Origin: an uncultured Planctomycetia bacterium
GTDB taxonomy: Bacteria > Omnitrophota > Gorgyraeia > VGKH01 > JBHPFN01
Assembly (NCBI GenBank): GCA_964406665.1
Contig: CAYOSQ010000003.1
Coordinates: forward strand, 38,641 to 102,640
Direction: 5' to 3'
Length of the DNA stretch: 64,000 nucleotides
The position numbers and the translations under genes were made by a program. The notes below the pieces were generated by a model. That model was not told the origin of the DNA, ran no database searches, and was given only the letters and a program-made list of their open reading frames with translations. Below, in pieces: positions 4,329 through 41,202 of this stretch. How positions within the stretch are numbered: position 1 is the stretch's first letter; every line of letters starts with the position of its first letter.

Positions 4329-5234
4329 ATGAAGGCAGAACTTAAAAAAATTGATGCATGCAAGAGACAACTAAACATTGAATTATCTAAAGAGATAATA
4401 GATAAAAAATTTGAAGAAGTATATAAAGAAATCGGCAAGCAGGCTAATATTAAGGGATTCCGCCCCGGGAAAGTTCCTAAGGATATTTTAATTAAACATC
4501 ATGCTCAGCTGGCGCGCGAGGAAGTGTTGAAATCTTTGATTCCTGAGTATTATCAAAAGGCCCTTATGGAGCAAAGTCTTGCTGCTGTAGACTTGCCTGA
4601 GATTCAGGATATTAAATTTACCGATGACTTCCTTTCTTTTAAGGCAGAATTCGAAATTAGGCCTGAGATTAAAATAAAGCAATATAAAGGTTTGAAAGTG
4701 AAAAGGAAATCAGCTGATGTTTCCGATGATGATGTTGAAAAAGCACTGGACTATCTTAAGAAATCAAAAGGAGATAAAGAAGAAGTAAAAATTGACGATG
4801 ATTTTGCTAAAGGTATGGGTTATCCTAGTCTTAAAGAACTTAGAGAGATGCTAAGAAAACAGCTTGAAATTTCCAAGGAACAACAGGTTAAAATGGATGT
4901 GGAAAATCAGGTGATCGAGCAACTAATTAAGAATTCTGACTTAGCGGTTCCCCAAGGTTCAGTTGTTAAGCAGTTAGACTATATGGTTAAGCAGACCAAG
5001 CAAAATCTTGCATATCAGGGAATGAAGCAGGAAGACGTTGAAAAAAAAGATGAGGAATTACGCAAAAGATTCAAAGATGATGCAGCAAAATCGGTTAAGG
5101 TGTTCTTTATCTTAGATAAGATCGCCGAGCTTGAAAATATCAAGATAGAAAAGGAACACGATTTAACCAGAACGGTGATAGAATTTTTGTTAAAAGAGGC
5201 ACAATGGCAAGAAGGGGGTAAAGATGGAAAGTAA
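4329..5234 (+). CDS. tig: Trigger factor lacking the FKBP-type PPIase domain
   Basis: 301 aa. N-domain ribosome-binding signature GFRPGKVP, then a direct transition into C-domain-like helical sequence. Sits upstream of clpP as in tig-clpP-clpX loci. About 130 aa shorter than canonical Tig. Confidence 0.7.
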
Positions 5235-5823
5235 GAATCAGGTACTTGTTCCTATGGTAGTTGAGCAAAGCAGCAGAGGTGAGAGGGCGTATGACATTTA
5301 TTCCAGACTTCTTAAAGATAGAATTGTTTTTATCGGCACCCCGGTAGATGATCATATTGCTAATATTGTTATTGCGCAGCTATTATTCTTACAGATGGAA
5401 GATGCAAAGAAGGAAATTAGTATTTATATCAACACACCAGGTGGTATAGTAACCGCAGGTTTAGCTTTATATGATACAATCCAGTTCTTAAAGCCGGATG
5501 TTGCTACTTATTGTGTCGGTCAAGCTGCGAGTATGGGTGCTGTGCTTTTAGCTGCAGGAACCAAGGGAAAGCGATATGCGCTTCCACATGCACGTATTAT
5601 GATTCATCAACCTTGGGGAGGAGCTCAGGGAGCAGCCTCAGATATTTCCATTCAGGCCCAAGAAATCTTACGCCTTAAAGATAAATTAAGTGAAATTTTG
5701 GCAAAGCATACCGGTAAATCAATCGAGCAGATTAAAACAGATTCAGATAGGGATTATTTTATGTCATCAGATGAGGCTAAGGAATATGGCATAATTGATG
5801 AGGTTATTTCAGCTAAGAAGTGA
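5224..5823 (+). CDS. clpP: ATP-dependent Clp protease proteolytic subunit
   Basis: 199 aa. Catalytic Ser region GQAASMGA, the His in MIHQP, and the ClpP N-terminus RIVFIG. Confidence 0.95.
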
Positions 5824-5832
5824 GGGAGGAAG

Positions 5833-6975
5833 ATGAGTAGCAAAAAGACATATTTATTAACACCAGGGCCAACGCCATTACCACCAGAAGTAATGGAGGC
5901 GCTTTCGCGTCAGATAATTCATCATAGAACTTCGCAGTTCCGCGATATATTGAAACAGGCTGAAGAGGGCCTGCAGTATGTATTCCAGACAAAGAATGAT
6001 GTATTTATTTTTGCATCTTCCGGAACAGGAGCCATGGAGGCAGCGGTTTGCAATTTACTTTCTGCAGGTGACAAAGCCATAACTGTTGAAGGTGGAAAGT
6101 TTGGTGAACGCTGGACGGAAATCTGCAAAAGTTACGGTGTTGAGCCTATTGTTGTTGAGGTAGAGTGGGGTAAATCAGTTGAACCTAAAGTCATAGGTGA
6201 TCTTCTTAAAAAAGACAAAAGCATCAAAGCAGTATTTACTACTCTTTGTGAAACCTCTACTGGTGTTACAGCAGATATAAAGACTATTGCAGATATTGTA
6301 AAAAAGACTTCCGCAGTTTTGGTTGTTGATGCAATTAGTGGGCTTGGCGCAGTTGATATTCAGACGGATAACTGGGAAGTGGATGTTGTTGTTGCTGGTT
6401 CTCAGAAAGGTCTTATGCTTCCCCCGGGATTAGGTTTTTTAAGCACAAGCGAAAAAGCCTGGAAATTAATTGAAGAATCTAAACTACCAAAATATTATTT
6501 TGATTTGAAAAAAGCCAAGAAGGCGTTAGATAAAACCGATACTGCATTTACACCGGCAATCGGATTAATTATTGCGTTAAATGAAGCTCTTGATATTATA
6601 AAGAAAGAAGGTTTGCAGAATGTATTTAAACGTTTTGCCAAAATGACTGAAGTAACCCGTAACGCTGCTGAAGCTATTGGGCTTTCTTTGTTTCCGGATA
6701 AGGGTTGTGCCTCAAATGCAGTTGTCGCACTTAGGCTTCCTGATTCTATTGATGGAGCAGCATTGGTTAAAACTATGCGGGATGTTAACGGAGTTGGTTT
6801 AGCCGGAGGACAAGCACAATTAAAAGGAAAAATAATCCGCATCGCCCACATGGGCTATATAAAGGAAGAAGATATATTAGCTGGATTTGAAGTGTTGGAG
6901 AAGGTGCTTGCAGAAATGGGTCATAAGCTTACTGCAGGTGCATCTGTTAAGATAATAAAAGAGCAACTTTTGTAA
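5833..6975 (+). CDS. Class-V PLP-dependent aminotransferase (serine-pyruvate / alanine-glyoxylate / archaeal-type phosphoserine aminotransferase family)
   Basis: 380 aa. N-terminal LLTPGPTPLP, PLP-lysine context VVAGSQKGL. Confidence 0.8.
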   Translation: MSSKKTYLLTPGPTPLPPEVMEALSRQIIHHRTSQFRDILKQAEEGLQYVFQTKNDVFIFASSGTGAMEAAVCNLLSAGDKAITVEGGKFGERWTEICKSYGVEPIVVEVEWGKSVEPKVIGDLLKKDKSIKAVFTTLCETSTGVTADIKTIADIVKKTSAVLVVDAISGLGAVDIQTDNWEVDVVVAGSQKGLMLPPGLGFLSTSEKAWKLIEESKLPKYYFDLKKAKKALDKTDTAFTPAIGLIIALNEALDIIKKEGLQNVFKRFAKMTEVTRNAAEAIGLSLFPDKGCASNAVVALRLPDSIDGAALVKTMRDVNGVGLAGGQAQLKGKIIRIAHMGYIKEEDILAGFEVLEKVLAEMGHKLTAGASVKIIKEQLL

Positions 6976-7050
6976 TTTATTTTGTTTCTTTAGCGGATAA
7001 TTATCTCAAGCTGAGAAAATATCCGCTTTGGTATTAATTAAGGAGGGGTA

Positions 7051-8001
7051 ATGTTTCGATCACAAATTAAAGTATTAGATTGCACTATCCGTGACGGAGG
7101 TCTTATCAATAATCATGATTTCGATAGACGTTTTGTGCGCGAAGTATACAAGGCCGTGTCTGCTGCAAATGTTGATTATATCGAGCTAGGCTACAGGAAT
7201 TCAAAGAAGATGTTTTCTCAGAAAGATTTCGGCTTATGGAAATTCTGCGATGATGAAGAAATAAATAAAGTTATCGAAGGTATTGAGTCTAATACAAAGA
7301 TTTCCGTAATGTGTGATGTCGGCCGAGTAGAAGAACAAGACGTTAAGCCAAAGTCAGAGAGCCCGGTAGATATGATAAGGGTTGCAAGTTATGTTAAGGA
7401 TATTGATAAAGCAATCGCCTTAGTAAATCAATTTGATGAAAAAGGGTATGAAACCACTATTAATATTATGGCGATATCCCGCGACCAGGATAGATTTCTA
7501 GACGAAGCGCTTGAACAGGCGGAGAAAGAAAGCAAAGCTCAGGTTATTTATATAGTTGATAGTTTTGGTGCGCTTTATCAAGAGACTGTTGAAGATCTGG
7601 TTAAAAGATTCAGGAGAATTGTTAAGACAAAAGAAGTTGGTTTTCACGGACACAACCACCAGCAGCTTGCTTTCGGCAATACAATCGAGGCTATAATGCA
7701 TAATGCTAATTATCTTGATGCCACTGTTTATGGTATTGGTCGCGCTGCAGGAAATTGTCCCTTAGAGCTTCTAGTGGGATTCTTAAAAAATCCAAAATTC
7801 GATATTCGTCCTCTATTGGATTTGATTTCTAAAGAGCTTATTCCTTTGAGGGATCAGATAGAATGGGGGTATATAATTCCTTATGCAATATCGGGAATGA
7901 TGAATATCCATCCTCGTGCAGCAATGGCGCTGAGAAACAGTGAGCAGAAAGAAAACTACAGGGAATTTTTTGAAAGCCTGGTAAATACCGACGAAGTCTA
8001 G
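7051..8001 (+). CDS. DRE-TIM metallolyase (HMGL-like; 4-hydroxy-2-oxovalerate aldolase-like) aldolase
   Basis: 316 aa. LDCTIRDGG N-terminal motif and FHGHNHQQLAFGNT...GIGRAAGNCPLE metal-site motifs, as in DmpG/HMGL-like enzymes. Confidence 0.7.
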   Translation: MFRSQIKVLDCTIRDGGLINNHDFDRRFVREVYKAVSAANVDYIELGYRNSKKMFSQKDFGLWKFCDDEEINKVIEGIESNTKISVMCDVGRVEEQDVKPKSESPVDMIRVASYVKDIDKAIALVNQFDEKGYETTINIMAISRDQDRFLDEALEQAEKESKAQVIYIVDSFGALYQETVEDLVKRFRRIVKTKEVGFHGHNHQQLAFGNTIEAIMHNANYLDATVYGIGRAAGNCPLELLVGFLKNPKFDIRPLLDLISKELIPLRDQIEWGYIIPYAISGMMNIHPRAAMALRNSEQKENYREFFESLVNTDEV

Positions 8002-8013
8002 TAGGCAAAATAT

Positions 8014-8649
8014 ATGGATGTAAAAAGTTTCCTTCAGCTTCCCATAATGGGGATTTTACGCGGTGTTTCTTCTGAAAGTATAATTCCACTTACAGAATCA
8101 GCAACCTCTTCCGGTTTAAAAACAATCGAGATAACAATGAATACCTCAGGTGCGCCTGAACTTCTTAAGAAGATGGTTAAGGTTGCTTCTGGTAACCTTA
8201 CCATAGGTGCTGGCACTGTTTTAAGCGAAGATGATGCAAAAGAAGCAGTTGATTCTGGGGCAACGTTCATTGTTTCTCCAACACTTGTTTCAGAGGTTGT
8301 AGAGTATTGTGCAAAAAACAAAATTCCTGTATTTCCTGGAGCATTTACTCCCCAAGAAATCTATAATGCCTGGAGAGCTGGAGCAACCATGGTTAAAGTG
8401 TTTCCGGCAAAGTTCTTTGGCCCCGCATATTTTAGAGAAATCAAAGGCCCTTTCAACGATATAAAACTTCTCGCCTGCGGCGGAGTTAATGAAGATACGA
8501 TTGAGCAGTTTTTTGTATCTGGAGCAGCAGCAGTTGCTTTTGGTGGAAGCATTTTCAAAAAAGATCTAATTGAAAGAAAAGATTTTTCTGCAATTGAAAA
8601 AAATATTAGATGTTTAGTTAACAAGGTGAAAAAAGTAAGCTCATCTTGA
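8014..8649 (+). CDS. eda: 2-dehydro-3-deoxyphosphogluconate / 4-hydroxy-2-oxoglutarate aldolase
   Basis: 211 aa. ILRG...IEIT...GAGTVL...FIVSP...GA.TP.E and KVFPA motifs typical of the KDPG aldolase family. Confidence 0.8.
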   Translation: MDVKSFLQLPIMGILRGVSSESIIPLTESATSSGLKTIEITMNTSGAPELLKKMVKVASGNLTIGAGTVLSEDDAKEAVDSGATFIVSPTLVSEVVEYCAKNKIPVFPGAFTPQEIYNAWRAGATMVKVFPAKFFGPAYFREIKGPFNDIKLLACGGVNEDTIEQFFVSGAAAVAFGGSIFKKDLIERKDFSAIEKNIRCLVNKVKKVSSS

Positions 8650-8712: not shown

Positions 8713-9636
8713 TTGCAGAAGTATTTTTTCCCCATTCTAATAATTGTTTTTTTCTTATCTTTATGCTTTCCTTGTTTTGCTCAAAGGGAATCAGTTACAA
8801 TTATCACTTATTATCCTGCCCCGTACGGAAATTATAAATATTTAGAAGCTAAAAAGAGTGCTGCAGTAGGAGATATCGGTGATTCAGGTACTCTCGGCAT
8901 AACCGAAGTCGATGATTTGCAGCAAGGAGAGCTGTTTGTAGAAGGTAATGTGACCTTTGGTACGCATATTGTTGATCCACCGATTGGTCAGGCAAAAACA
9001 GGAGAGCTAATTTATTTTGATGATACAGTAGATAACGGGTTTAAATATTTTGACGGAACAGATTGGATGTTGCCTGCTACAATGGGTGGAATGGGTGGTT
9101 GCTATGTTTCTTTTTGCGGGAATAGATTTGAAGGTATGGCCTCTCCAAGTGTACGCCGCTGTAGTTTTAATTCGGAAGCTTCTCCTGCCAATGTTTGCTT
9201 AGATGATTTTAGCCAGGTAGGAGATAGTGGTAGATATGGTTTTTGCTATGTTGATGACTTTCCTTCTTTTCATCATAGACATAAAGTGTATCATAGGCCA
9301 CCGGCTGATGACTCAGGTAATCCTTCTTGTGATGCGGGAGAGATTTTTTTTAGTGAGGGTTCAGCATATCTTTGTTGTAAAGATCCGGTTGCAAGTGTTA
9401 AGGCTTGTTATATATCCTATTGTGATTCTGCAGATGATAATTGTAGCTTTGGAGGAACACCTGCCGATCCTTGCATAGGAGGATTTGCGCAACAGGGAAG
9501 TAGTAGTACTTGGGGTTATTGTGAAGTTACTGCAGGTGGATGGATTCCAGGATATTATTTCCGTCCACCTCATGGAAACTGTGATTGGCGTTTTACTCCA
9601 CATGATATTGGAAACGCTTATTTATGTTGTAAATAA
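8713..9636 (+). CDS. Secreted cysteine-rich protein, paralog 1 (conserved N-domain + two 8-Cys modules, each ending YLCCK)
   Basis: 307 aa. TTG start with AAGGAGAG RBS. Signal peptide ending CFA|QRE. Mature N-terminus TIITYYPAPYG... shared with the next two genes. Two Cys modules (aa ~129-223 and ~231-307). Confidence 0.7.
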   Translation: MQKYFFPILIIVFFLSLCFPCFAQRESVTIITYYPAPYGNYKYLEAKKSAAVGDIGDSGTLGITEVDDLQQGELFVEGNVTFGTHIVDPPIGQAKTGELIYFDDTVDNGFKYFDGTDWMLPATMGGMGGCYVSFCGNRFEGMASPSVRRCSFNSEASPANVCLDDFSQVGDSGRYGFCYVDDFPSFHHRHKVYHRPPADDSGNPSCDAGEIFFSEGSAYLCCKDPVASVKACYISYCDSADDNCSFGGTPADPCIGGFAQQGSSSTWGYCEVTAGGWIPGYYFRPPHGNCDWRFTPHDIGNAYLCCK

Positions 9637-9647
9637 ATGTTTAAATT

Positions 9648-10214
9648 ATGCGAAATAGTTTAATTGTTAACAAAATATTTATTATTTGCATATTTGTGTT
9701 ATTTATTTTCTTCGTGATAGAGAGCTTTGCAGATGAAGGGCTAACGATTACAACTTATTATCCTGCCCCTTATGGGGTTTATAATCAGGTTGAAGCAAAA
9801 GCGGGATTTGCTGTAGGTGATATTTCAGGCATTGGTACAGTGGGGGATTTATATACGGGTGAGCTTTTTATATCTGACGGTGCGATTTTTAAACCAAAAA
9901 ACGTTGACCCTGGTGCAGGTGATGGAAAGCAGGGTGAGCTTATTTATAATGCTACAGAAGATACTTTCAAATTTTTCGCTGACGGCGCTTGGAATAATAT
10001 GATTGGAGGAGAGGTTTGTTATTTATCTTTTTGTAACGGTATGGTAGAAGATGATTGCAGTTTTGGTGGCACACCTTGCATAGGAGGCTTTACAAAACTT
10101 GAACCAAATGATGTTTATGGATTTGATCCTTATTGTGCAAACTGTCAATATGCTTTTGATATAAACGGCCAGGATATTATTTCTTCTGGTAGGATATATT
10201 TATGCTGTAAATAA
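9648..10214 (+). CDS. Secreted cysteine-rich protein, paralog 2 (N-domain + one 8-Cys module, ends IYLCCK)
   Basis: 188 aa. Signal peptide ...ESFA|DEG. TITTYYPAPYG...AVGDI...GELF...FKPKNVDP...GELIYN...FKFFADGAW. Then CYLSFC...DCSFGGTPCIGGF...YC..C...YLCCK. Confidence 0.7.
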   Translation: MRNSLIVNKIFIICIFVLFIFFVIESFADEGLTITTYYPAPYGVYNQVEAKAGFAVGDISGIGTVGDLYTGELFISDGAIFKPKNVDPGAGDGKQGELIYNATEDTFKFFADGAWNNMIGGEVCYLSFCNGMVEDDCSFGGTPCIGGFTKLEPNDVYGFDPYCANCQYAFDINGQDIISSGRIYLCCK

Positions 10215-10226
10215 AATTATTAGCGT

Positions 10227-10886
10227 ATGAAGAAAAACAAAACTTTTCAATTATTATTTTTAGCTATAATATTTTTTGCTCATTGTAATTGTGTTAGAGC
10301 AGAAGATATATCTTTTACAACATATTATCCTTCTCTACAGGGTGTTTATTCGGGCTTATCTTCTGAAGAGGCATTTGCTGTGGGTGATATATCAGATTCT
10401 GGTACTGCTGCAGTAGATGAGACCACTGATTTAGATCAGGGTGAAGTTTTTGTTGAAGATAGCGTAATATTCAAGCCAAAAAACGCTGACCCGATTCCTG
10501 CTGATTCCAGGGCTGGTAGTTTGATATATAATGATGTAGAGGATATGTTTAAATATTATGATGGAACTCAATGGAAAGGGTTTACCGGAGCTGCAATAGA
10601 AGGTGGTGGTTGTTATATTTCTTATTGTAAGTCTCCAGGTGGCATAAGTGGTTTTTGTTCTTTTGGAACTGTCTGGGATGTTGCTGATCAACATCCTTGT
10701 AGAGAAGATTTAGGTTATCAGCAAGTTGGTGTGGGTGATCTTCATGGTAGGTGCTGCAGGGCTTCTAATCCACCTGGTCTTCATTGTACAGGGGCAGATC
10801 ATTTCTATGCTGGTGGAGGCTGTGGCAATGCTGGTAGCAGCTGGGTAATCAGAAATTCTTTTTATATATTTCTTTGCTGTAAATAG
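10227..10886 (+). CDS. Secreted cysteine-rich protein, paralog 3 (N-domain + 10-Cys module, ends IFLCCK)
   Basis: 219 aa. Signal peptide ...VRA|EDI. SFTTYYPSLQG...AVGDI...GEVF...FKPKNADP...GSLIYN...FKYYDGTQW. Cys module CYISYC...FCSFG...PC...CC...C...C...FLCCK. Confidence 0.7.
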   Translation: MKKNKTFQLLFLAIIFFAHCNCVRAEDISFTTYYPSLQGVYSGLSSEEAFAVGDISDSGTAAVDETTDLDQGEVFVEDSVIFKPKNADPIPADSRAGSLIYNDVEDMFKYYDGTQWKGFTGAAIEGGGCYISYCKSPGGISGFCSFGTVWDVADQHPCREDLGYQQVGVGDLHGRCCRASNPPGLHCTGADHFYAGGGCGNAGSSWVIRNSFYIFLCCK

Positions 10887-11114: not shown

Positions 11115-12701
11115 ATGAAGTTATTGATTGGTGATTCATTATCGAACGAAGGAGTTAAGATATTAGAGAAGGTTAAGGGTTTAAAGGTAGATGTCAATAC
11201 AGGCCTTAAGCCTGATGAGCTTAAGAAGATAATAAAAGATTATGACGCGATTGTGATAAGAAGTGCAACTAAGCTTACTGCTGATGTACTTAAAGAGGCT
11301 AAAAATCTAAAATATATCGGACGTGCTGGTGTCGGATTAGACAACGTAGATCTAGAAGCTGCAACTAAGCAGGGTATTATAGTTATGAACGCACCAGGCG
11401 GAAACACTATTTCTACTGCTGAGCATACAGTTAGTATGATTTTAGCACTTTCCAGGAATATCCCTCAAGCTCATGCTTCTACATCGGGTGGAAATTGGGA
11501 ACGTAAGAAGTTTATGGGTGCTGAGGTATACGGAAAAACTTTAGGTATTGTGGGCTTGGGCAAAATTGGAACCGCGGTTGCCAAGCGTGCCTTAGCATTT
11601 GGGATGAAGATTGTAGCGTATGATCCTTTTATATCTTTAGAAGTTGCCAAGCAGTTGGGTGTTGAAATTGTTGAGCTAAAGGATTTATTCCCTAAGGTTG
11701 ATTATATTACCGTGCACACTCCTCTTTCTGATGAGACAAAGCATATGATTTCAGATAAACAGTTCGCTGCTATGAAGAACGGGGTTAAGGTGATTAATTG
11801 TGCCCGAGGGGGAATTATTGATGAAGTAGCGCTTATTAAGGCAATAGATTCGGGTAAAGTTTCCGGTTGTGCAATGGATGTATTCGAAACTGAACCTCCG
11901 GGAAAAGAGTCTCCGCTTCTTAAATCGGACAAAATTATTAGAACTCCCCATATCGGTGCTTCAACTGAAGAAGCCCAGGTAAGTGTGGCAATTGAAATCG
12001 CCCACACGATAAAAGATGCATTAACTGATAACGTGATTAAAAATGCTGCCAACTTTCCTTGTGTGGAAGCAGAGGTCTGTGAAGTATTAAGCCCTTATAT
12101 AGCTCTTTCTGAAAAAATGGGAGAGTTGGCTTGTCAATTATTCGATGGTCGCATTAATAAGGTTGTCGTTGACTATAATGGACAGATCGCCGAGCTTAAG
12201 AATGAATCGGCAACTATTGCTGTAGTTAAGGGTTTGCTCACTCCGGTAGTCCGTGAGATGGTAAATTATGTCAATGCAAAAAGCTTGGCTAAAGAGAGAG
12301 GTATTAAGGTTAAGGTTTCGGAATCTACTTCATCAGAGGAAGAGTTTGTTAATTTAATTACAGTTAAGGTTTCAGACGGAAAGTCAGATTTATTGATTTG
12401 CGGTACACTTTCAAGCAATAACCAGCCTAGAATAGTTAAGATAAATGATTTTTATGTTGAGGCCAAACCCGAAGGCCATATGCTTTTCATGCGTAATTCT
12501 GATTTACCCGGAGTTATCGGTGCAATAGGAACTATCTTAGGAAACAATAAGGTAAATATTGCAACAATGACGTTCGGCAGAACCGAAGTCGGAGGAGATG
12601 CGCTTTCTGTAGTTAATATAGACAGTCCATTATCGGCTAAAATCCTCGAAGAAATAAAAAAAGCCAAACATATTAAATCTGTAAAATTAATCAAATTATA
12701 A
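11115..12701 (+). CDS. serA: D-3-phosphoglycerate dehydrogenase (with C-terminal ACT domain)
   Basis: 528 aa. NAD-binding GIVGLGKIGTAVA, catalytic region, C-terminal ACT-like segment. Canonical long SerA. Confidence 0.9.
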   Translation: MKLLIGDSLSNEGVKILEKVKGLKVDVNTGLKPDELKKIIKDYDAIVIRSATKLTADVLKEAKNLKYIGRAGVGLDNVDLEAATKQGIIVMNAPGGNTISTAEHTVSMILALSRNIPQAHASTSGGNWERKKFMGAEVYGKTLGIVGLGKIGTAVAKRALAFGMKIVAYDPFISLEVAKQLGVEIVELKDLFPKVDYITVHTPLSDETKHMISDKQFAAMKNGVKVINCARGGIIDEVALIKAIDSGKVSGCAMDVFETEPPGKESPLLKSDKIIRTPHIGASTEEAQVSVAIEIAHTIKDALTDNVIKNAANFPCVEAEVCEVLSPYIALSEKMGELACQLFDGRINKVVVDYNGQIAELKNESATIAVVKGLLTPVVREMVNYVNAKSLAKERGIKVKVSESTSSEEEFVNLITVKVSDGKSDLLICGTLSSNNQPRIVKINDFYVEAKPEGHMLFMRNSDLPGVIGAIGTILGNNKVNIATMTFGRTEVGGDALSVVNIDSPLSAKILEEIKKAKHIKSVKLIKL

Positions 12702-12715
12702 AAAGAGGTGATTGT

Positions 12716-12952
12716 ATGAAAAAAGCTAATAGCTTTTTGAAGGTTGCAGCTGTGTGTGTGGCATCGTTGGTGATTGCATTTTTGCTTTATAGCGCAACCA
12801 GCGCGGCAGAGTATACCAATGCTGATTTATCTGGAGATGAATTACTTTTAAGACTTGATTCTATTGAAAATAATCAAAAAATTATTTTACAACGTCTTGA
12901 TTCTTTAGAAGAAACACTTATTAAAGAAATAAAGATTAGATGCACTAAATAA
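12716..12952 (+). CDS. Small single-pass membrane protein with coiled-coil tail (hypothetical)
   Basis: 78 aa. One N-terminal TM helix then a heptad-like LLLRLDSIENNQKIILQRLDSLEETL segment. Good RBS (AAGAGGTG). Immediately precedes the DUF1573-DsbD gene. Confidence 0.5.
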   Translation: MKKANSFLKVAAVCVASLVIAFLLYSATSAAEYTNADLSGDELLLRLDSIENNQKIILQRLDSLEETLIKEIKIRCTK

Positions 12953-12954
12953 TT

Positions 12955-14100
12955 ATGAAGAAAATATTAGTTACGCTTATATTTCTTTTATTGGCGACAA
13001 CATGCTTTGCTGCGCCTAAGATATCTATTGATGATGGATATTTCGATTTAGGCATTATGGCAGAGGGGCAAGTTTATCCTTATAAATTTAGAATTAAGAA
13101 TATCGGCGATGAAGATCTTAAGATAGATGTAATTCATGTAAGTTGCGGATGTGTTAAGATTGTTAAACCGGACGGTCCGATAACTGTTTCTGCGGGTGAA
13201 GAATTTGAATTACAATTTAATTTTGATACGACAGGTTTTTTTGGTGAGACGGTAAAATATATTTATGTAAATACAAATGTGCCAAAAAATCCGTTGCTTA
13301 GGATTAGGCTAGATACTTTTATTGAGGCACAAGAGCAGGTTCTTTTAAGAAGATTTGAGAAGTTTAGCGGCTGGACAGTAGTTGGTGTCGGACTCGTTGA
13401 TGGTGTGAATCCTTGTGCGTTTACTGTGCTTATATTTTTCTTATCATTTTTAAGCTTTGCTGGATATGGTCGGCGTCAGATTATAGTTCTAGGCAGCGTA
13501 TTTATATTAACAGTATTTCTTACTTATTTAGCTATTGGTTTGGGGATATTCGAATTTTTGCACAATCTGCCTAATTTTGAAATTGTTTCAAAAATTATTT
13601 ATTTCATCACTGCTTGTCTGGCTATTGTCTTAGGATTCCTCAGTCTTTATGATTGGTGGATATTTAAAAAGACAAAAGATCCGGATAAGATAAAATTAAA
13701 ACTGCCTGGAATGGTGAAAAAGCAGATTCATGGTGTTATTAAAGATCATACAAAGGATAAATCCAATAAGCAAAGCGTTATAAAACTAGCATTAACAGCT
13801 TTAAGTTGTGGTTTTATTGTTTCTTTACTTGAGTCTGTTTGCACCGGCCAACTTTATGTACCTACGATTGTTTATGTTCTAGGCGTACCTGGTTTGAAGG
13901 CACAAGCCTGGCTGTACTTGTTGTTATACAATTTAATGTTTATTGTGCCGTTGGTAACAATATTTATGTTTGCGCTATTTGGGGTTACTTCAGAAGGATT
14001 TGCTAAGATTGCTAAGTTGCATCTTGCAAAAATTAAGCTTATTACGGCATTTGTATTTTTCTTTTTGGGATTATTTTTATTATTTATTGTTAAACACTAA
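12955..14100 (+). CDS. DUF1573 domain fused to a DsbD/CcdA-like thiol:disulfide transporter membrane domain
   Basis: 381 aa. Signal peptide. DUF1573 signature ...KIDVIHVSCGCVKIVKPDGPI.... Then about 6 TM helices with conserved Cys in VNPCAF (TM1) and SVCTGQ (later TM), as in the CcdA/DsbD_2 family. Confidence 0.6.
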   Translation: MKKILVTLIFLLLATTCFAAPKISIDDGYFDLGIMAEGQVYPYKFRIKNIGDEDLKIDVIHVSCGCVKIVKPDGPITVSAGEEFELQFNFDTTGFFGETVKYIYVNTNVPKNPLLRIRLDTFIEAQEQVLLRRFEKFSGWTVVGVGLVDGVNPCAFTVLIFFLSFLSFAGYGRRQIIVLGSVFILTVFLTYLAIGLGIFEFLHNLPNFEIVSKIIYFITACLAIVLGFLSLYDWWIFKKTKDPDKIKLKLPGMVKKQIHGVIKDHTKDKSNKQSVIKLALTALSCGFIVSLLESVCTGQLYVPTIVYVLGVPGLKAQAWLYLLLYNLMFIVPLVTIFMFALFGVTSEGFAKIAKLHLAKIKLITAFVFFFLGLFLLFIVKH

Positions 14101-14116
14101 AAAGGATAGAAAGTAG

Positions 14117-15910
14117 ATGAAAAGAAAAGTTTTTATTATTGCACTGTTTTGCTTAAGTCTTTTATTAACAAGCAATTCTTTATATGCTGAAAAAGTAACT
14201 ATAGCCTATACTGGTGGTTCATATTCAAATCTATATCCTTGTAGATGTCCTAAATCACCGAATGGTGGGGTGGCTCGACGTGCAACAATTCTAAATAAGT
14301 TGTGCAAAGAATACCCCAGTTTGTTATTGCTTGATTCTGGCGGATATTTTGGCGGTGGAATGCAGGATGGTGAAAAGACTACTCTGGAATTAGATAAAAA
14401 GCGAACTGTATTAAATTTAGAAATTATGGAGTTGTTGGGATATGATGTAGTCGGAATAAGCAAGGAAGAAATGAATTTCGGTAGAGATTTTCTGATTGAT
14501 AAAATAAAAGATACTGGAATTAATTTTCTTGCATGCAACATAGATTTACCTGGAGCAGCGCCGTTTATCATTAAAGAGGCTAGCTCTGTCAAGATCGGCA
14601 TTCTCGCAGTTGCACCATTAGATTTTATTACAGAAAATAAACAGGATTTTTCTGATGTTTTGAAAACAGTTACGGGAAACATAGAATATATGTCTAAGCA
14701 AGGTGCAGAAATTGTTATTGTGTTGAGTTACCTTGGGCATAGCTTAGATATTCAATTGATGGAGCAGGTTAAAGGAATAGATGTTTTAATAGGAACTAGT
14801 GAGACGAGCAAGGCTGATCCAGAAGGTAAAATAGGAGAGACTTTATATTTAAGACCTTATTATTGGGCTAAAACTGTAAAAATTGCTGAATTAGATATAG
14901 CAGATGGCAAGGTAAACAGTTTTGAGATTAAGCAGTTTCCCTTGAGTTCTGATATTGTAGATGATCCCGAAATTCAGTCTTTACTTCCTCGTTGTTTTTC
15001 AAAAAAGCAATGTAAAAAACGTGGGTTTGTTGGAAGTTGTGAATCTCCTGGAGAAATAACTGCTAAATGTACTTATGAAGAACAGGCAAAGATTCCTTTA
15101 TTGATAATAAGGCCCGATAGCTGTAAAACTTGCAATGCTAGAAGGGCTTTATCTGATGTTCAGAAAAATATTCCTGGTATTTTTCCTTCATTTGTTAACG
15201 AGTCATCGAAAAGAGGTAAATCTTTTATCAAAAAATACAATATTAAGCTATTGCCGGCATTTCTGTTAGGTCGCTCAATAGAAAGAGAAGCAACATTTAG
15301 ACAACTTCTTGACAAAAAAATTATTCAGAAAAAAGATAATAGTTATTATTTAATCAGTCCTTCCTATGCGGGGGGATCGTATTTTACTAACAGAAAGAAT
15401 ATAGATGGGCGTCTAGATTTATTTATAAGTTTATATGATAAAAAGGTAAAAAATGTTCTTAAAGTTACTAAGCAGTTAATTGAAACCATTGAAGACAAGA
15501 TAGATTTTAAGCTTCATTTTTTAGTTTTTGAAAATAAAGAGACAGGTGAATTAGTTTCGAAATATGGTAAGACTGAGGTAGAAGAAGCTAAACGCGCATT
15601 ATGCATTATAGAGAAATATCCGGATAAAACATGGGATTATTTATTCTGTCGTATAGATAATATAGAAAGTAGTTGGTGGGATGATTGCGCCAAAAGCGCT
15701 GGTATTGATGTGGAATCAATAAAAGAATGTGCAAAATCTCAAGAAGCAATTGATTTGATAAAAAATAACATTAAGCTTTCTAAAAAGCTGGGAGTTTCTT
15801 ATGGTCCACTGTTTCTTTTGAATAATAGGGAAATTTTTGGAATTGGAGAAAATACTACAGTAGAAGAATTAAAGTTAATAGTCAAACAGGAGGAAAAAGA
15901 TGACAAATAA
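14117..15910 (+). CDS. Secreted protein: degenerate 5'-nucleotidase/metallophosphatase-like N-domain + thioredoxin/DsbA-like domain(s) with CKTC motif
   Basis: 597 aa. Signal peptide. N-domain aligns by eye to the 5'-nucleotidase N-terminus, but the metal ligands are replaced (YTGGSYS for HTNDxHG, DSGG for DxGD). LLIIRPDSCKTCN... is a thioredoxin-fold CxxC. The C-terminal GVSYGPLFLLNNREIFG resembles the DsbA G-x-GTP-tfvING end. Confidence 0.55.
   Translation: MKRKVFIIALFCLSLLLTSNSLYAEKVTIAYTGGSYSNLYPCRCPKSPNGGVARRATILNKLCKEYPSLLLLDSGGYFGGGMQDGEKTTLELDKKRTVLNLEIMELLGYDVVGISKEEMNFGRDFLIDKIKDTGINFLACNIDLPGAAPFIIKEASSVKIGILAVAPLDFITENKQDFSDVLKTVTGNIEYMSKQGAEIVIVLSYLGHSLDIQLMEQVKGIDVLIGTSETSKADPEGKIGETLYLRPYYWAKTVKIAELDIADGKVNSFEIKQFPLSSDIVDDPEIQSLLPRCFSKKQCKKRGFVGSCESPGEITAKCTYEEQAKIPLLIIRPDSCKTCNARRALSDVQKNIPGIFPSFVNESSKRGKSFIKKYNIKLLPAFLLGRSIEREATFRQLLDKKIIQKKDNSYYLISPSYAGGSYFTNRKNIDGRLDLFISLYDKKVKNVLKVTKQLIETIEDKIDFKLHFLVFENKETGELVSKYGKTEVEEAKRALCIIEKYPDKTWDYLFCRIDNIESSWWDDCAKSAGIDVESIKECAKSQEAIDLIKNNIKLSKKLGVSYGPLFLLNNREIFGIGENTTVEELKLIVKQEEKDDK

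Positions 15911-38410: not shown

Positions 38411-41202
<2,792 letters not shown>

Follow-up and report, generated by a model that had tools for sequence, protein, structure and literature searches.

A probable DsbD-like thiol-disulfide relay in Omnitrophota, formed by a DUF1573-membrane fusion protein and a cysteine-rich exported partner

The question raised by the locus described here is whether a set of closely spaced genes in an uncultured member of the Omnitrophota encodes a route by which thiol reducing equivalents cross the inner membrane and, if so, how that route relates to the known DsbD and CcdA systems. The genes lie within a stretch of 64,000 nucleotides (the window; positions 38,641 to 102,640 of contig CAYOSQ010000003.1, assembly GCA_964406665.1) and encode a small protein of 78 residues, a 381-residue fusion of a DUF1573 domain to a polytopic membrane domain, and a 597-residue exported partner; on the other side of serA lies a triplet of genes for cysteine-rich secreted proteins. 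An original prediction, made from the sequence alone, had seen in these three co-directional, tightly spaced open reading frames (ORFs) a candidate extracytoplasmic thiol-disulfide module, and both the ORFs, on the plus strand (Table 1), and the four cysteine motifs that it singled out (SCGC, VNPCAF, SVCTGQ and CKTC) are present as described. In our assessment there is a probability of roughly 0.7 that the 381- and 597-residue proteins make up a thiol-disulfide relay of the DsbD kind that spans the inner membrane, while the 78-residue protein may be accessory to it in the closest relatives. Most likely, they represent an undescribed branch of the DsbD/CcdA machinery, in which the conduit is fused to DUF1573 and works with a Cys-rich exported partner built on a disabled nucleotidase fold.

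Much of the argument turns on the membrane half of the fusion (residues 126-381). It contains six hydrophobic segments, with which the helices of an AlphaFold2 model agree (calculated from a 115-sequence alignment, with a mean predicted local distance difference test score, pLDDT, of 79; a single-sequence prediction, at pLDDT 47, was unusable), and both of its termini are predicted to lie outside, the predicted cytoplasmic loops (residues 170-175, 233-273 and 346-359) being those rich in lysine and arginine, of which the 41-residue loop 233-273 alone holds 12. Two cysteines, Cys154 in the first transmembrane (TM) segment and Cys296 in the fourth, sit in the motifs DG(I/V)NPCAF and E-x-x-C-T-G-Q-x-Y-x-P-T, which are fully conserved in 115 close relatives and in 80 distant ones, and they align with Cys163 and Cys285 of DsbD (in the mature numbering), found there in the sequences TPC and SPC respectively.

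Direct searches gave weak results for this domain: among 80 members of the family, Pfam returned DsbD_TM for three (best E 5e-4) and DsbD_2 over its full length for one (E 0.006), in each case below the gathering score, and SfLAP, again weakly, for two, all of these models being within a single clan. Profile-profile comparison was therefore used, in which an 80-sequence alignment of the membrane domain was compared using hhalign with a template made from E. coli DsbD (from NC_000913) and its relatives, and with the same template after addition of a canonical CcdA from locus L083 (a Pfam DsbD_TM match at E 2.5e-32). Against the TM region of DsbD the global P was 4e-5 over 213 columns, with NPC aligned to TPC, LKLP to LQLP and VCTGQ to PCTTA; with CcdA included, the probability was 92.9% and P fell to 5.4e-8 over 216 columns. 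Reversed and column-shuffled templates, used as controls, gave P of at least 0.13. Searching in either direction with hidden Markov models (HMMs) led to the same neighbourhood: over about 1000 ORFs of the fetched loci the DsbD-TM model placed the L083 CcdA first and then mostly members of the present family (the window protein itself scoring only E 8.5), while for the model of the present family the same canonical CcdA was the best outside match (E 0.006). Some members are named “CcdA” automatically in IMG, those in NCBI being “hypothetical” or “DUF1573 domain-containing”. The best profile match is to DsbD/CcdA, redox cysteines included, and we conclude that the membrane domain is a predicted, distant relative within the DsbD/CcdA superfamily, which keeps the two redox cysteines and has a signature of its own.

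The DUF1573 domain that precedes it lies outside the cytoplasm, as judged by hydropathy and the positive-inside rule. Its assignment was correctly predicted: residues 24-113 match Pfam DUF1573 (PF07610) at 53.3 bits against a gathering score of 26.1 (E 2.9e-14), and the domain has the immunoglobulin (Ig)-like fold and the CGC motif of that family. It is also related to the OS_HP2 (seleno)proteins of NF041425, without being a member (46 bits, against a curated cut-off of 100). In the AlphaFold2 model the CGC motif (Cys64-Gly-Cys66) sits between two strands, and it is at least 90% conserved among the 115 homologues; a C-x-C sequence, mostly S/T-C-G-C-T, occurs in all of the DUF1573 domains that accompany this TM family. 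The CGC tripeptide is said, in work of Woycechowsky and Raines from 2003, to have a reduction potential near that of protein disulfide isomerase. Reviews of prokaryotic selenoproteins include a DUF1573 selenoprotein in which the motif reads UGC (PMC13188914, PMC9312934), which is the signature to be expected of a redox-active site. No link between DUF1573 and CcdA or DsbD was found in the papers searched, in keeping with the earlier statement that such a fusion is not known as a described architecture.

Turning to the 597-residue partner, its N-terminal signal peptide implies that the CxxC domain is exported, so that this domain, like DUF1573, is on the outer side of the membrane, as had been supposed. 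The prediction of a secreted, thioredoxin- and DsbA-like protein was sound as regards export and as regards a thioredoxin (Trx)-like motif, Cys336, Cys339 and Pro380 being present in 113 of 113 homologues, but it missed the fact that about half of the protein consists of a degenerate UshA-like fold followed by a linker containing four cysteines. The first of these, residues 26-289, matches metallophosphatase folds in a profile search of the PDB at E 2e-34. Three NCBIfam models also match, in each case far too weakly for membership: the UshA-like (seleno)protein NF041198 (E 1.4e-25; 89.9 against 275 bits), SoxB TIGR04486 (E 3.4e-19; 68.6 against 550 bits), and UshA-like selenoprotein family 2, again far below its cut-off. 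At the seven metal-binding and catalytic positions that read D, H, D, N, H, H, H in CD73 and UshA, the window protein has G, Y, G, K, E, Y, S and thus keeps none of the original residues; among the homologues the commonest pattern is E, H, G, D, D, H, H. Four of the 113 have kept the bridging Asp, Asn117 is mostly replaced by Asp, as is the catalytic His118, and the full set occurs in none; nor does Pfam find the 5_nucleotid_C domain (PF02872) anywhere in the protein. Nucleotidase or SoxB activity was considered for the partner and rejected on account of the loss of these metal and catalytic residues, and the protein is almost certainly not a nucleotidase.

What the UshA-like domain does retain is a Y-P-C-x-C-P motif, with Cys42 present in 112 and Cys44 in all 113 of the homologues. 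In the selenoprotein family NF041198, whose short name is UshA_like_PCGU, the corresponding position is occupied by CxU (tabulated in one of the two selenoprotein reviews, PMC13188914 or PMC9312934). All four cysteines of the linker (C293-x5-C299-x8-C308-x9-C318) are likewise found in all 113 homologues, and would form either structural disulfides or a metal site. The C-terminal domain gives Pfam matches to DSBA, Thioredoxin_4 and Thioredoxin_5 at about E 4e-4, all of them below the gathering score (for DSBA 20.6 against 25.6 bits), and across 25 members there were eight matches to DSBA and two to GILT. At the canonical active-site position of this DsbA-like region the sequence reads SLYDK rather than CxxC; four other cysteines (496, 511, 524 and 538) are conserved in 112 of the 113 homologues. 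The partner found in Candidatus Gygaella (locus L003) is only 307 residues long and comprises just the Trx-like and DsbA-like domains, so that some lineages can do without the UshA-like domain. A distant homologue of 773 residues, P0236, carries an insert of some 180 residues (alignment columns about 340-560) containing CPYG (...MSQCPYGIPAL...), which could represent an additional DsbA-like module that has half of an active site.

Whether the fusion and the partner belong together can be judged from the wider distribution of their domains. A HMMER scan using residues 126-381 collected 3251 clusters at 50% identity with E of 1e-3 or better, 903 of them at 1e-30 or better, and species-representative genomes contain at least 578 loci of the TM family, distributed over Omnitrophota, Elusimicrobiota, Planctomycetota, Desantisbacteria, Latescibacterota, Margulisiibacteriota, Poribacteria, Atribacteria and Anaerolineales. 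Architectures were labelled, using HMMs built from the alignments of this analysis, in the 150 best 50%-identity representatives. The commonest were Trx-like-TM (56 of the 150) and Trx-Trx-TM (30), followed by the TM domain alone (17, some being fragments), DUF1573-Trx-TM (9), DUF1573-TM, which is the type found in the window (8), DUF1573-Trx-Trx-TM (7) and the permuted Trx-TM-DUF1573 (4). In a few cases domains of the partner are themselves fused to the membrane domain: its Trx-like and DsbA-like domains precede Trx-TM in three proteins and follow DUF1573-TM in one (P0110, 660 residues), while single examples were seen of UshA-like-Trx-TM and of UshA-like-DUF1573-Trx-TM (P0404, 873 residues). 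The identity of the common N-terminal domain as a thioredoxin or glutaredoxin was established by Pfam, with Thioredoxin_2 found in 49 of 80 members together with CxxC and the cis-proline, and that of the metallophosphatase domain in the Planctomycetia fusions was similarly confirmed. Whatever the version, then, the membrane domain is accompanied by at least one exported CxxC module, and very often by DUF1573 as well.

The separate genes show a complementary pattern. All ten DUF1573-TM loci (seven of them distinct, with the window included) have the Trx-like plus DsbA-like partner directly downstream, while no partner-type gene was found next to Trx-TM in any of about 60 loci; of these, 30 have a separate, abutting DUF1573 gene and three more have DUF1573 fused. 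Because the TM domain is elsewhere fused to these same types of domain, and because the partner always stands beside the subtype that has no Trx domain of its own, there is strong comparative evidence that the fusion and the partner of the window work together. The second of these facts also suggests that the CxxC domain of the partner substitutes for the fused Trx domain.

How the relay might run is most easily seen by analogy with DsbD, where electrons pass from cytoplasmic thioredoxin to the beta domain (with its membrane cysteines), and from there, by way first of the Trx-like gamma domain and next of the Ig-like alpha domain, to client proteins (PMC3322552). By the same logic, cytoplasmic thioredoxin would reduce the Cys154-Cys296 pair, and that pair would reduce Cys336/Cys339 in the partner. 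From there electrons could pass to the CGC motif of DUF1573, acting as an alpha-like adapter, to the PCxCP motif of the UshA-like domain, or to both, and these sites would act in turn on envelope client proteins or on a small-molecule substrate. The PCxCP motif would thus be a fourth, optional redox site, and may be the catalytic end-point. Thioredoxin as donor, the reductive direction and the sequence of transfers in the periplasm are all features that we infer from the DsbD precedent.

A number of points weigh against a DsbD-like relay. The proposal that the polytopic domain resembles CcdA/DsbD_2 is borne out by profile-profile comparison and by the aligned cysteines, but Pfam and NCBIfam return nothing for residues 126-381 of the window protein itself; similarly, a profile of the fusion family found no match among the sequences of the PDB, and fold searches, in which the Ig domain dominated the match lists, left the membrane half unclassified. 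The Pro-Cys dipeptide typical of DsbD and CcdA is present at the first cysteine (NPC) and missing from the second, where the motif is VCTGQ and the residue before the cysteine is Val, Phe or Ile across the family. Composition can also push up the probabilities that hhalign assigns to TM proteins, but here the controls speak against this. The resemblance of the partner's Trx-like domain to thioredoxins is itself weak (the best PDB match, to thioredoxin h, has E 0.008, and there is no Pfam thioredoxin match), as is its hhalign match to the fused Trx-like domain of the TM family (P 1e-3), in which CxxC nevertheless aligns with CxxC and Pro with Pro. Finally, CxC motifs can also bind metals, and neither the direction of electron flow nor the clients are fixed by sequence.

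If electrons flowed the other way, the membrane domain would be a DsbB- or VKOR-like acceptor taking electrons from the exported partner, and the outcome would be the introduction of disulfides into secreted proteins such as those of the triplet. The DsbA/GILT-like C-terminal domain, the absence of proline from the partner's CxxC and the presence of Cys-rich secreted proteins nearby, both in the window and in locus L088, could all be read in this way, and the direction itself is not readable from the sequence. However, the homology is to DsbD and CcdA, the characterised classes of which are all reductant transporters (PMC3322552); Pfam searches show no similarity of the membrane domain to DsbB or VKOR; the DsbA-like domain lacks its active-site CxxC; and in 30 out of 30 loci of at least 6 kb the triplet family occurs without genes of the module, one isolated thioredoxin-like match apart. 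Oxidative flow therefore seems quite unlikely. It is a little less likely still that, instead of relaying electrons, the TM cysteines and periplasmic CxC motifs serve to bind or move a thiophilic metal such as Cu, Hg, Cd or Zn, in the manner of some LysE-superfamily and Scs-type systems, despite the facts that the DsbD clan belongs to a superfamily that includes metal exporters, that there are weak SfLAP matches, that CxC and CxxC are able to chelate soft metals, that a Cu/Zn efflux selenoprotein with UxC appears in one of the selenoprotein reviews, and that ScsB systems are reported to tie redox chemistry to copper homeostasis (PMC10907172). The best and the sole reproducible profile match is nonetheless to DsbD/CcdA with the redox cysteines aligned, the main fusion partner is thioredoxin- or glutaredoxin-like with CxxC and cis-proline (in those same 49 of 80 members), and no metal-binding domain such as HMA was detected in the Pfam scans.

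Two further possibilities concern the partner and its position. SoxB is among the matches of the partner's N-terminal domain, the small protein has an invariant cysteine near its C-terminus, for which SoxY as the substrate of SoxB offers a parallel, and all of the components have selenoprotein relatives; one might therefore imagine a sulfur or selenium carrier chemistry in which the UshA/SoxB-like domain acts on an adduct bound to that cysteine, with the CcdA-like and Trx parts reactivating the carrier in the roles of SoxV and SoxW. SoxV, itself homologous to CcdA, acts together with periplasmic thioredoxins. The window protein, though, has lost the dimetal site on which SoxB depends, with none of the seven ligands present (and the bridging Asp in only four of 113 homologues), the SoxB score falls far short at 68.6 against 550 bits, the small protein is missing from loci L001 and L003, the second of which (Gygaella) lacks the UshA-like domain as well, and no other sox genes were seen in any module locus; a Sox-like carrier cycle is accordingly highly improbable. 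Least probable of all is that the two large genes are neighbours merely because housekeeping gene order has been frozen in the Omnitrophota, with no joint function. They do lie inside a long conserved array, for which reason adjacency alone is weak evidence, but domains of the partner are fused to the membrane domain elsewhere (P0110, P0365, P0372, P0404, L014 and L055), and the partner adjoins the membrane protein only in the subtype that has no fused Trx domain of its own. None of these rivals fits the fusion data as well as a DsbD-like relay does.

If a DsbD-like relay is accepted, it remains to place it among the three classes described for the DsbD superfamily, namely DsbD, CcdA and ScsB (PMC3322552). 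With E. coli DsbD it shares redox cysteines in the first and fourth TM segments, both of which align, as well as an exported Ig-like domain with a cysteine pair and an exported Trx-like CxxC, making three redox modules (PMC3322552). However, it is not DsbD proper: there are six TM segments rather than eight, the alpha domain of DsbD is PF11412 whereas the Ig-like domain here is DUF1573 (PapD/HYDIN-like, with CGC, and with no PF11412 match), there is no fused gamma domain, and VCTGQ replaces the Pro-Cys of the fourth TM segment, Pfam DsbD_TM missing the window protein altogether. True DsbDs carry PF11412 and PF13899. The Trx module here is on a separate protein, and in the relatives it is N-terminal, giving the permuted order Trx-TM-DUF1573. 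CcdA (PDB 5VKV) is closer in having six TM segments, cysteines in the first and fourth of these and separate exported Trx-like partners, but it lacks any fused periplasmic domain, has very low identity to the window family and shows other signature motifs. ScsB supplies a precedent for superfamily classes being set by differing alpha domains, and some bacteria have separate genes for alpha, beta and gamma (PMC3322552), but ScsB has eight TM segments, an alpha domain peculiar to it and a gamma domain at the C-terminus, and is known from Proteobacteria and Chlamydia, not from the phyla seen here. As judged by these comparisons the present family would stand apart from all three, having a six-TM core with its own motifs, a Trx domain that is N-terminal or supplied in trans, and DUF1573 as its Ig-like module.

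The exported domains also have relatives of their own. The NF041198 and DUF1573/OS_HP2 (seleno)proteins have the same folds, with PCGU in place of PCRC and UGC in place of CGC, but they stand alone and have no described function, while the window proteins score below the respective cut-offs and lack selenocysteine; across the module and TM-family loci that were fetched, no CxC position was found to have an in-frame TGA. The 5'-nucleotidases, including UshA and CD73, share the N-terminal metallophosphatase fold and, with it, the loop after motif I in which the CxC lies; they differ in that the partner has lost the metal and catalytic residues and has a Cys linker, a Trx-like and a DsbA-like domain in place of PF02872. 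In an aligned snake-venom 5'-nucleotidase the same loop also contains two cysteines (KCTGEDC), and CD73 has a disulfide there.

A bolder version would place the window's system in a fourth DsbD-superfamily class, as the first of its members to be resolved anatomically, and in this class DUF1573 is a redox-active, alpha-type adapter and the relay feeds a catalytic CxC (CxU in the selenoprotein relatives) within the gutted active-site region of a 5'-nucleotidase. This we regard as speculative and, on balance, unlikely; were it true, a phosphatase scaffold would have been re-used as an envelope thiol or selenol oxidoreductase, and its target, in place of ordinary protein disulfides, might be a small molecule containing sulfur, selenium or a metalloid, or else the Cys at the C-terminus of the small protein.

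Table 1 Features of the module and of its surroundings in the window (nucleotide positions are those of the window).
Feature	Nucleotides	Strand	Remarks
316-aa HMGL-like and KDPG-aldolase-like genes	7051-8649		between serC and the Cys-rich triplet
Cys-rich triplet	8713-10886		
serA	11115-12701		
Small protein ORF, 78 aa	12716..12952	+	
Fusion ORF (DUF1573 and membrane domain), 381 aa	12955..14100	+	
Fusion: signal peptide, residues 1-19 (...CFA/AP)	12955..13011	+	from hydropathy and sequence; putative cleavage site
Fusion: DUF1573 Ig-like beta-sandwich, residues 20-125	13012..13329	+	extracytoplasmic
Fusion: CGC motif, Cys64-Gly-Cys66	13144..13152	+	beta-hairpin turn; putative redox-active pair
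Fusion: six-TM DsbD/CcdA-superfamily-like domain, residues 126-381	13330..14100	+	predicted N-out/C-out; from hydropathy, K/R distribution, AlphaFold2 helices, hhalign and reciprocal HMM searches
Fusion: NPCAF in TM1 (Cys154)	13408..13422	+	invariant
Fusion: ESVCTGQ in TM4 (Cys296)	13831..13851	+	invariant
Partner ORF, 597 aa	14117..15910	+	
Partner: signal peptide, residues 1-24 (...LYA/EK)	14117..14188	+	hydrophobic segment 5-23 and family alignment; putative cleavage site
Partner: degenerate 5'-nucleotidase/UshA-type metallophosphatase-fold domain, residues 26-289	14192..14983	+	
Partner: PCRCP motif (Cys42, Cys44)	14237..14251	+	six to eight residues past the lost motif-I His position
Partner: four-Cys linker, PRCFSx4Cx8Cx9C (Cys293, 299, 308, 318)	14987..15070	+	
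Partner: Trx-like domain, residues 323-425	15083..15391	+	CKTC (Cys336/Cys339) at 15122-15133; cis-Pro candidate Pro380 at 15254-15256
Partner: DsbA/GILT-like C-terminal domain, residues 426-590	15392..15886	+	no canonical CxxC; Cys 496, 511, 524, 538 conserved
Homocitrate-synthase-like gene, 414 aa	15900-17144		

As to the genes themselves, the gaps separating serA and the three genes of the module are, in order, 14, 2 and 16 nucleotides, the 3' end of the partner gene shares 11 nucleotides with the next gene, and a Shine-Dalgarno-like GAGGTGA lies upstream of the smallest ORF. The fusion has 1370 homologues and the partner at least 132, nearly all from Candidatus Omnitrophota; given these numbers, and the adjacency of fusion and partner genes in all seven distinct loci of the DUF1573-TM architecture, the three ORFs are real genes and not chance ORFs. 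In Omnitrophota the module occupies a fixed place in a conserved array, kdsA-kdsD-kdsC-lptC-lptB-tig-clpP-serC-serA-[module]-homocitrate-synthase-like-purA-ompA, and this order points to vertical inheritance of a core function. No recurrent client gene was found near the module, the neighbours (a PKD-repeat protein, an M48 peptidase, MarC and others) varying with lineage.

Some features of the wider setting may be added. The homocitrate-synthase-like gene that follows the partner is kept in most module loci, while the HMGL-like and KDPG-aldolase-like genes that lie between serC and the triplet are peculiar to the window and L087, the L087 orthologue of the latter having a Pfam Aldolase match; there are thus two HMGL-like genes in the window, one in each of these regions. 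The window is of about 36% G+C and its genes are almost all on the plus strand: ORFs of at least 150 codons are nearly all so oriented, the only two on the minus strand being nested in longer plus-strand ORFs, and each 2-kb bin has a positive GC skew (0.14-0.29), from which it follows that the whole window falls inside a single, strongly strand-biased stretch. Scans of all 64 kb for Rfam families and tRNA genes found none at threshold, and a promoter and terminator scan from 10.8 to 17.3 kb was uninformative, the counts being equal to those in shuffled sequence.

The original prediction had gone further and connected the module functionally with the Cys-rich triplet. This connection did not survive, and conserved co-occurrence of the module with the YYPAPxG...CCK family was rejected after being tested from both sides. 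The triplet lies outside the conserved Omnitrophota gene order, and in the closest relative of the module (L087, 76% identity) a gene for a tetratricopeptide repeat (TPR) protein takes its position, so that the serC-serA interval looks like a variable insertion site. In five of the seven distinct module loci there is no triplet-family gene near the module; besides L087, with its TPR gene, four further distinct loci hold nothing at the position of the triplet. The only other locus to have one is L088, where a 316-residue member (6832-7782; ...TTYYPAPHGVY..., with ...LFCCK at its C-terminus) directly follows the partner. For the reverse test, 80 metagenome loci of the triplet family were used (L090-L169, 517 kb in total, 30 of them of at least 6 kb), and in none of those 30 were membrane-family, DUF1573 or partner genes present, a single isolated thioredoxin-like match being all that was seen. 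With two of seven loci on the one side and none of 30 on the other, the association is sporadic; a general envelope redox system could still have the triplet proteins among its clients, but nothing in the genome specifically supports this. Members of the triplet family are secreted proteins in which the signal peptide is directly followed by (T/I)TYYP(A/S)(P/L)xG and which end in (L/F)CCK, and relatives occur in at least 469 metagenome loci, with up to six copies per locus.

The 78-residue protein had been described as a single-pass coiled-coil protein. It does have a hydrophobic segment (residues 6-24) followed by a heptad-like, coiled-coil-like region, but the hydrophobic segment could be a signal anchor or, equally well, a cleavable signal peptide. 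Orthologues of 71-78 residues lie between serA and the fusion gene in L005, L087, L088 and L089, and in all of these, as in the window protein, the C-terminal sequence E-x3-R-C is found, with Cys76 invariant and placed two or three residues from the C-terminus. The gene is not present in module loci L001 and L003, being confined to the closest subclade (five loci), and its product may be a lineage-restricted accessory bearing one conserved exported cysteine.

Elsewhere in the TM family, a few loci deserve brief mention. In L083 (Anaerolineales) a Trx-Trx-Trx-TM member (4711-6732) lies about 600 nucleotides upstream of the canonical CcdA (7356-8033), showing that the two kinds of conduit can share one genome, where they are probably not redundant. 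Omnitrophota also contain a second paralogue, of the Trx-TM/DUF1573 kind (L007, L013, L016 and L022), directly downstream of which is a four-TM protein of about 322-325 residues that may be a recurrent neighbour; the L013 protein belongs to the M48 (HtpX-like) peptidases and contains an EF-hand-like segment. In the Elusimicrobia-type loci L024 (5099-5686) and L026 (5093-5686), a six-TM protein of the MarC family is encoded directly upstream of the Trx-TM gene.

The mechanism proposed here extends the known biology of DsbD and introduces no new principle. Its interest lies rather in the families that it brings together. DUF1573 is a very common exported domain without a function, and the module gives it a testable role, as a CGC redox adapter analogous to the alpha domain of DsbD. 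The partner retains the fold of a metallophosphatase but not the metal site, and has acquired an invariant CxC, and this ties the UshA-like and the DUF1573/OS_HP2 selenoprotein families to one pathway. The membrane family, for its part, is large, is modelled by neither Pfam nor NCBIfam and belongs mostly to uncultured phyla, and its recognition would improve the annotation of envelope redox systems in these organisms.

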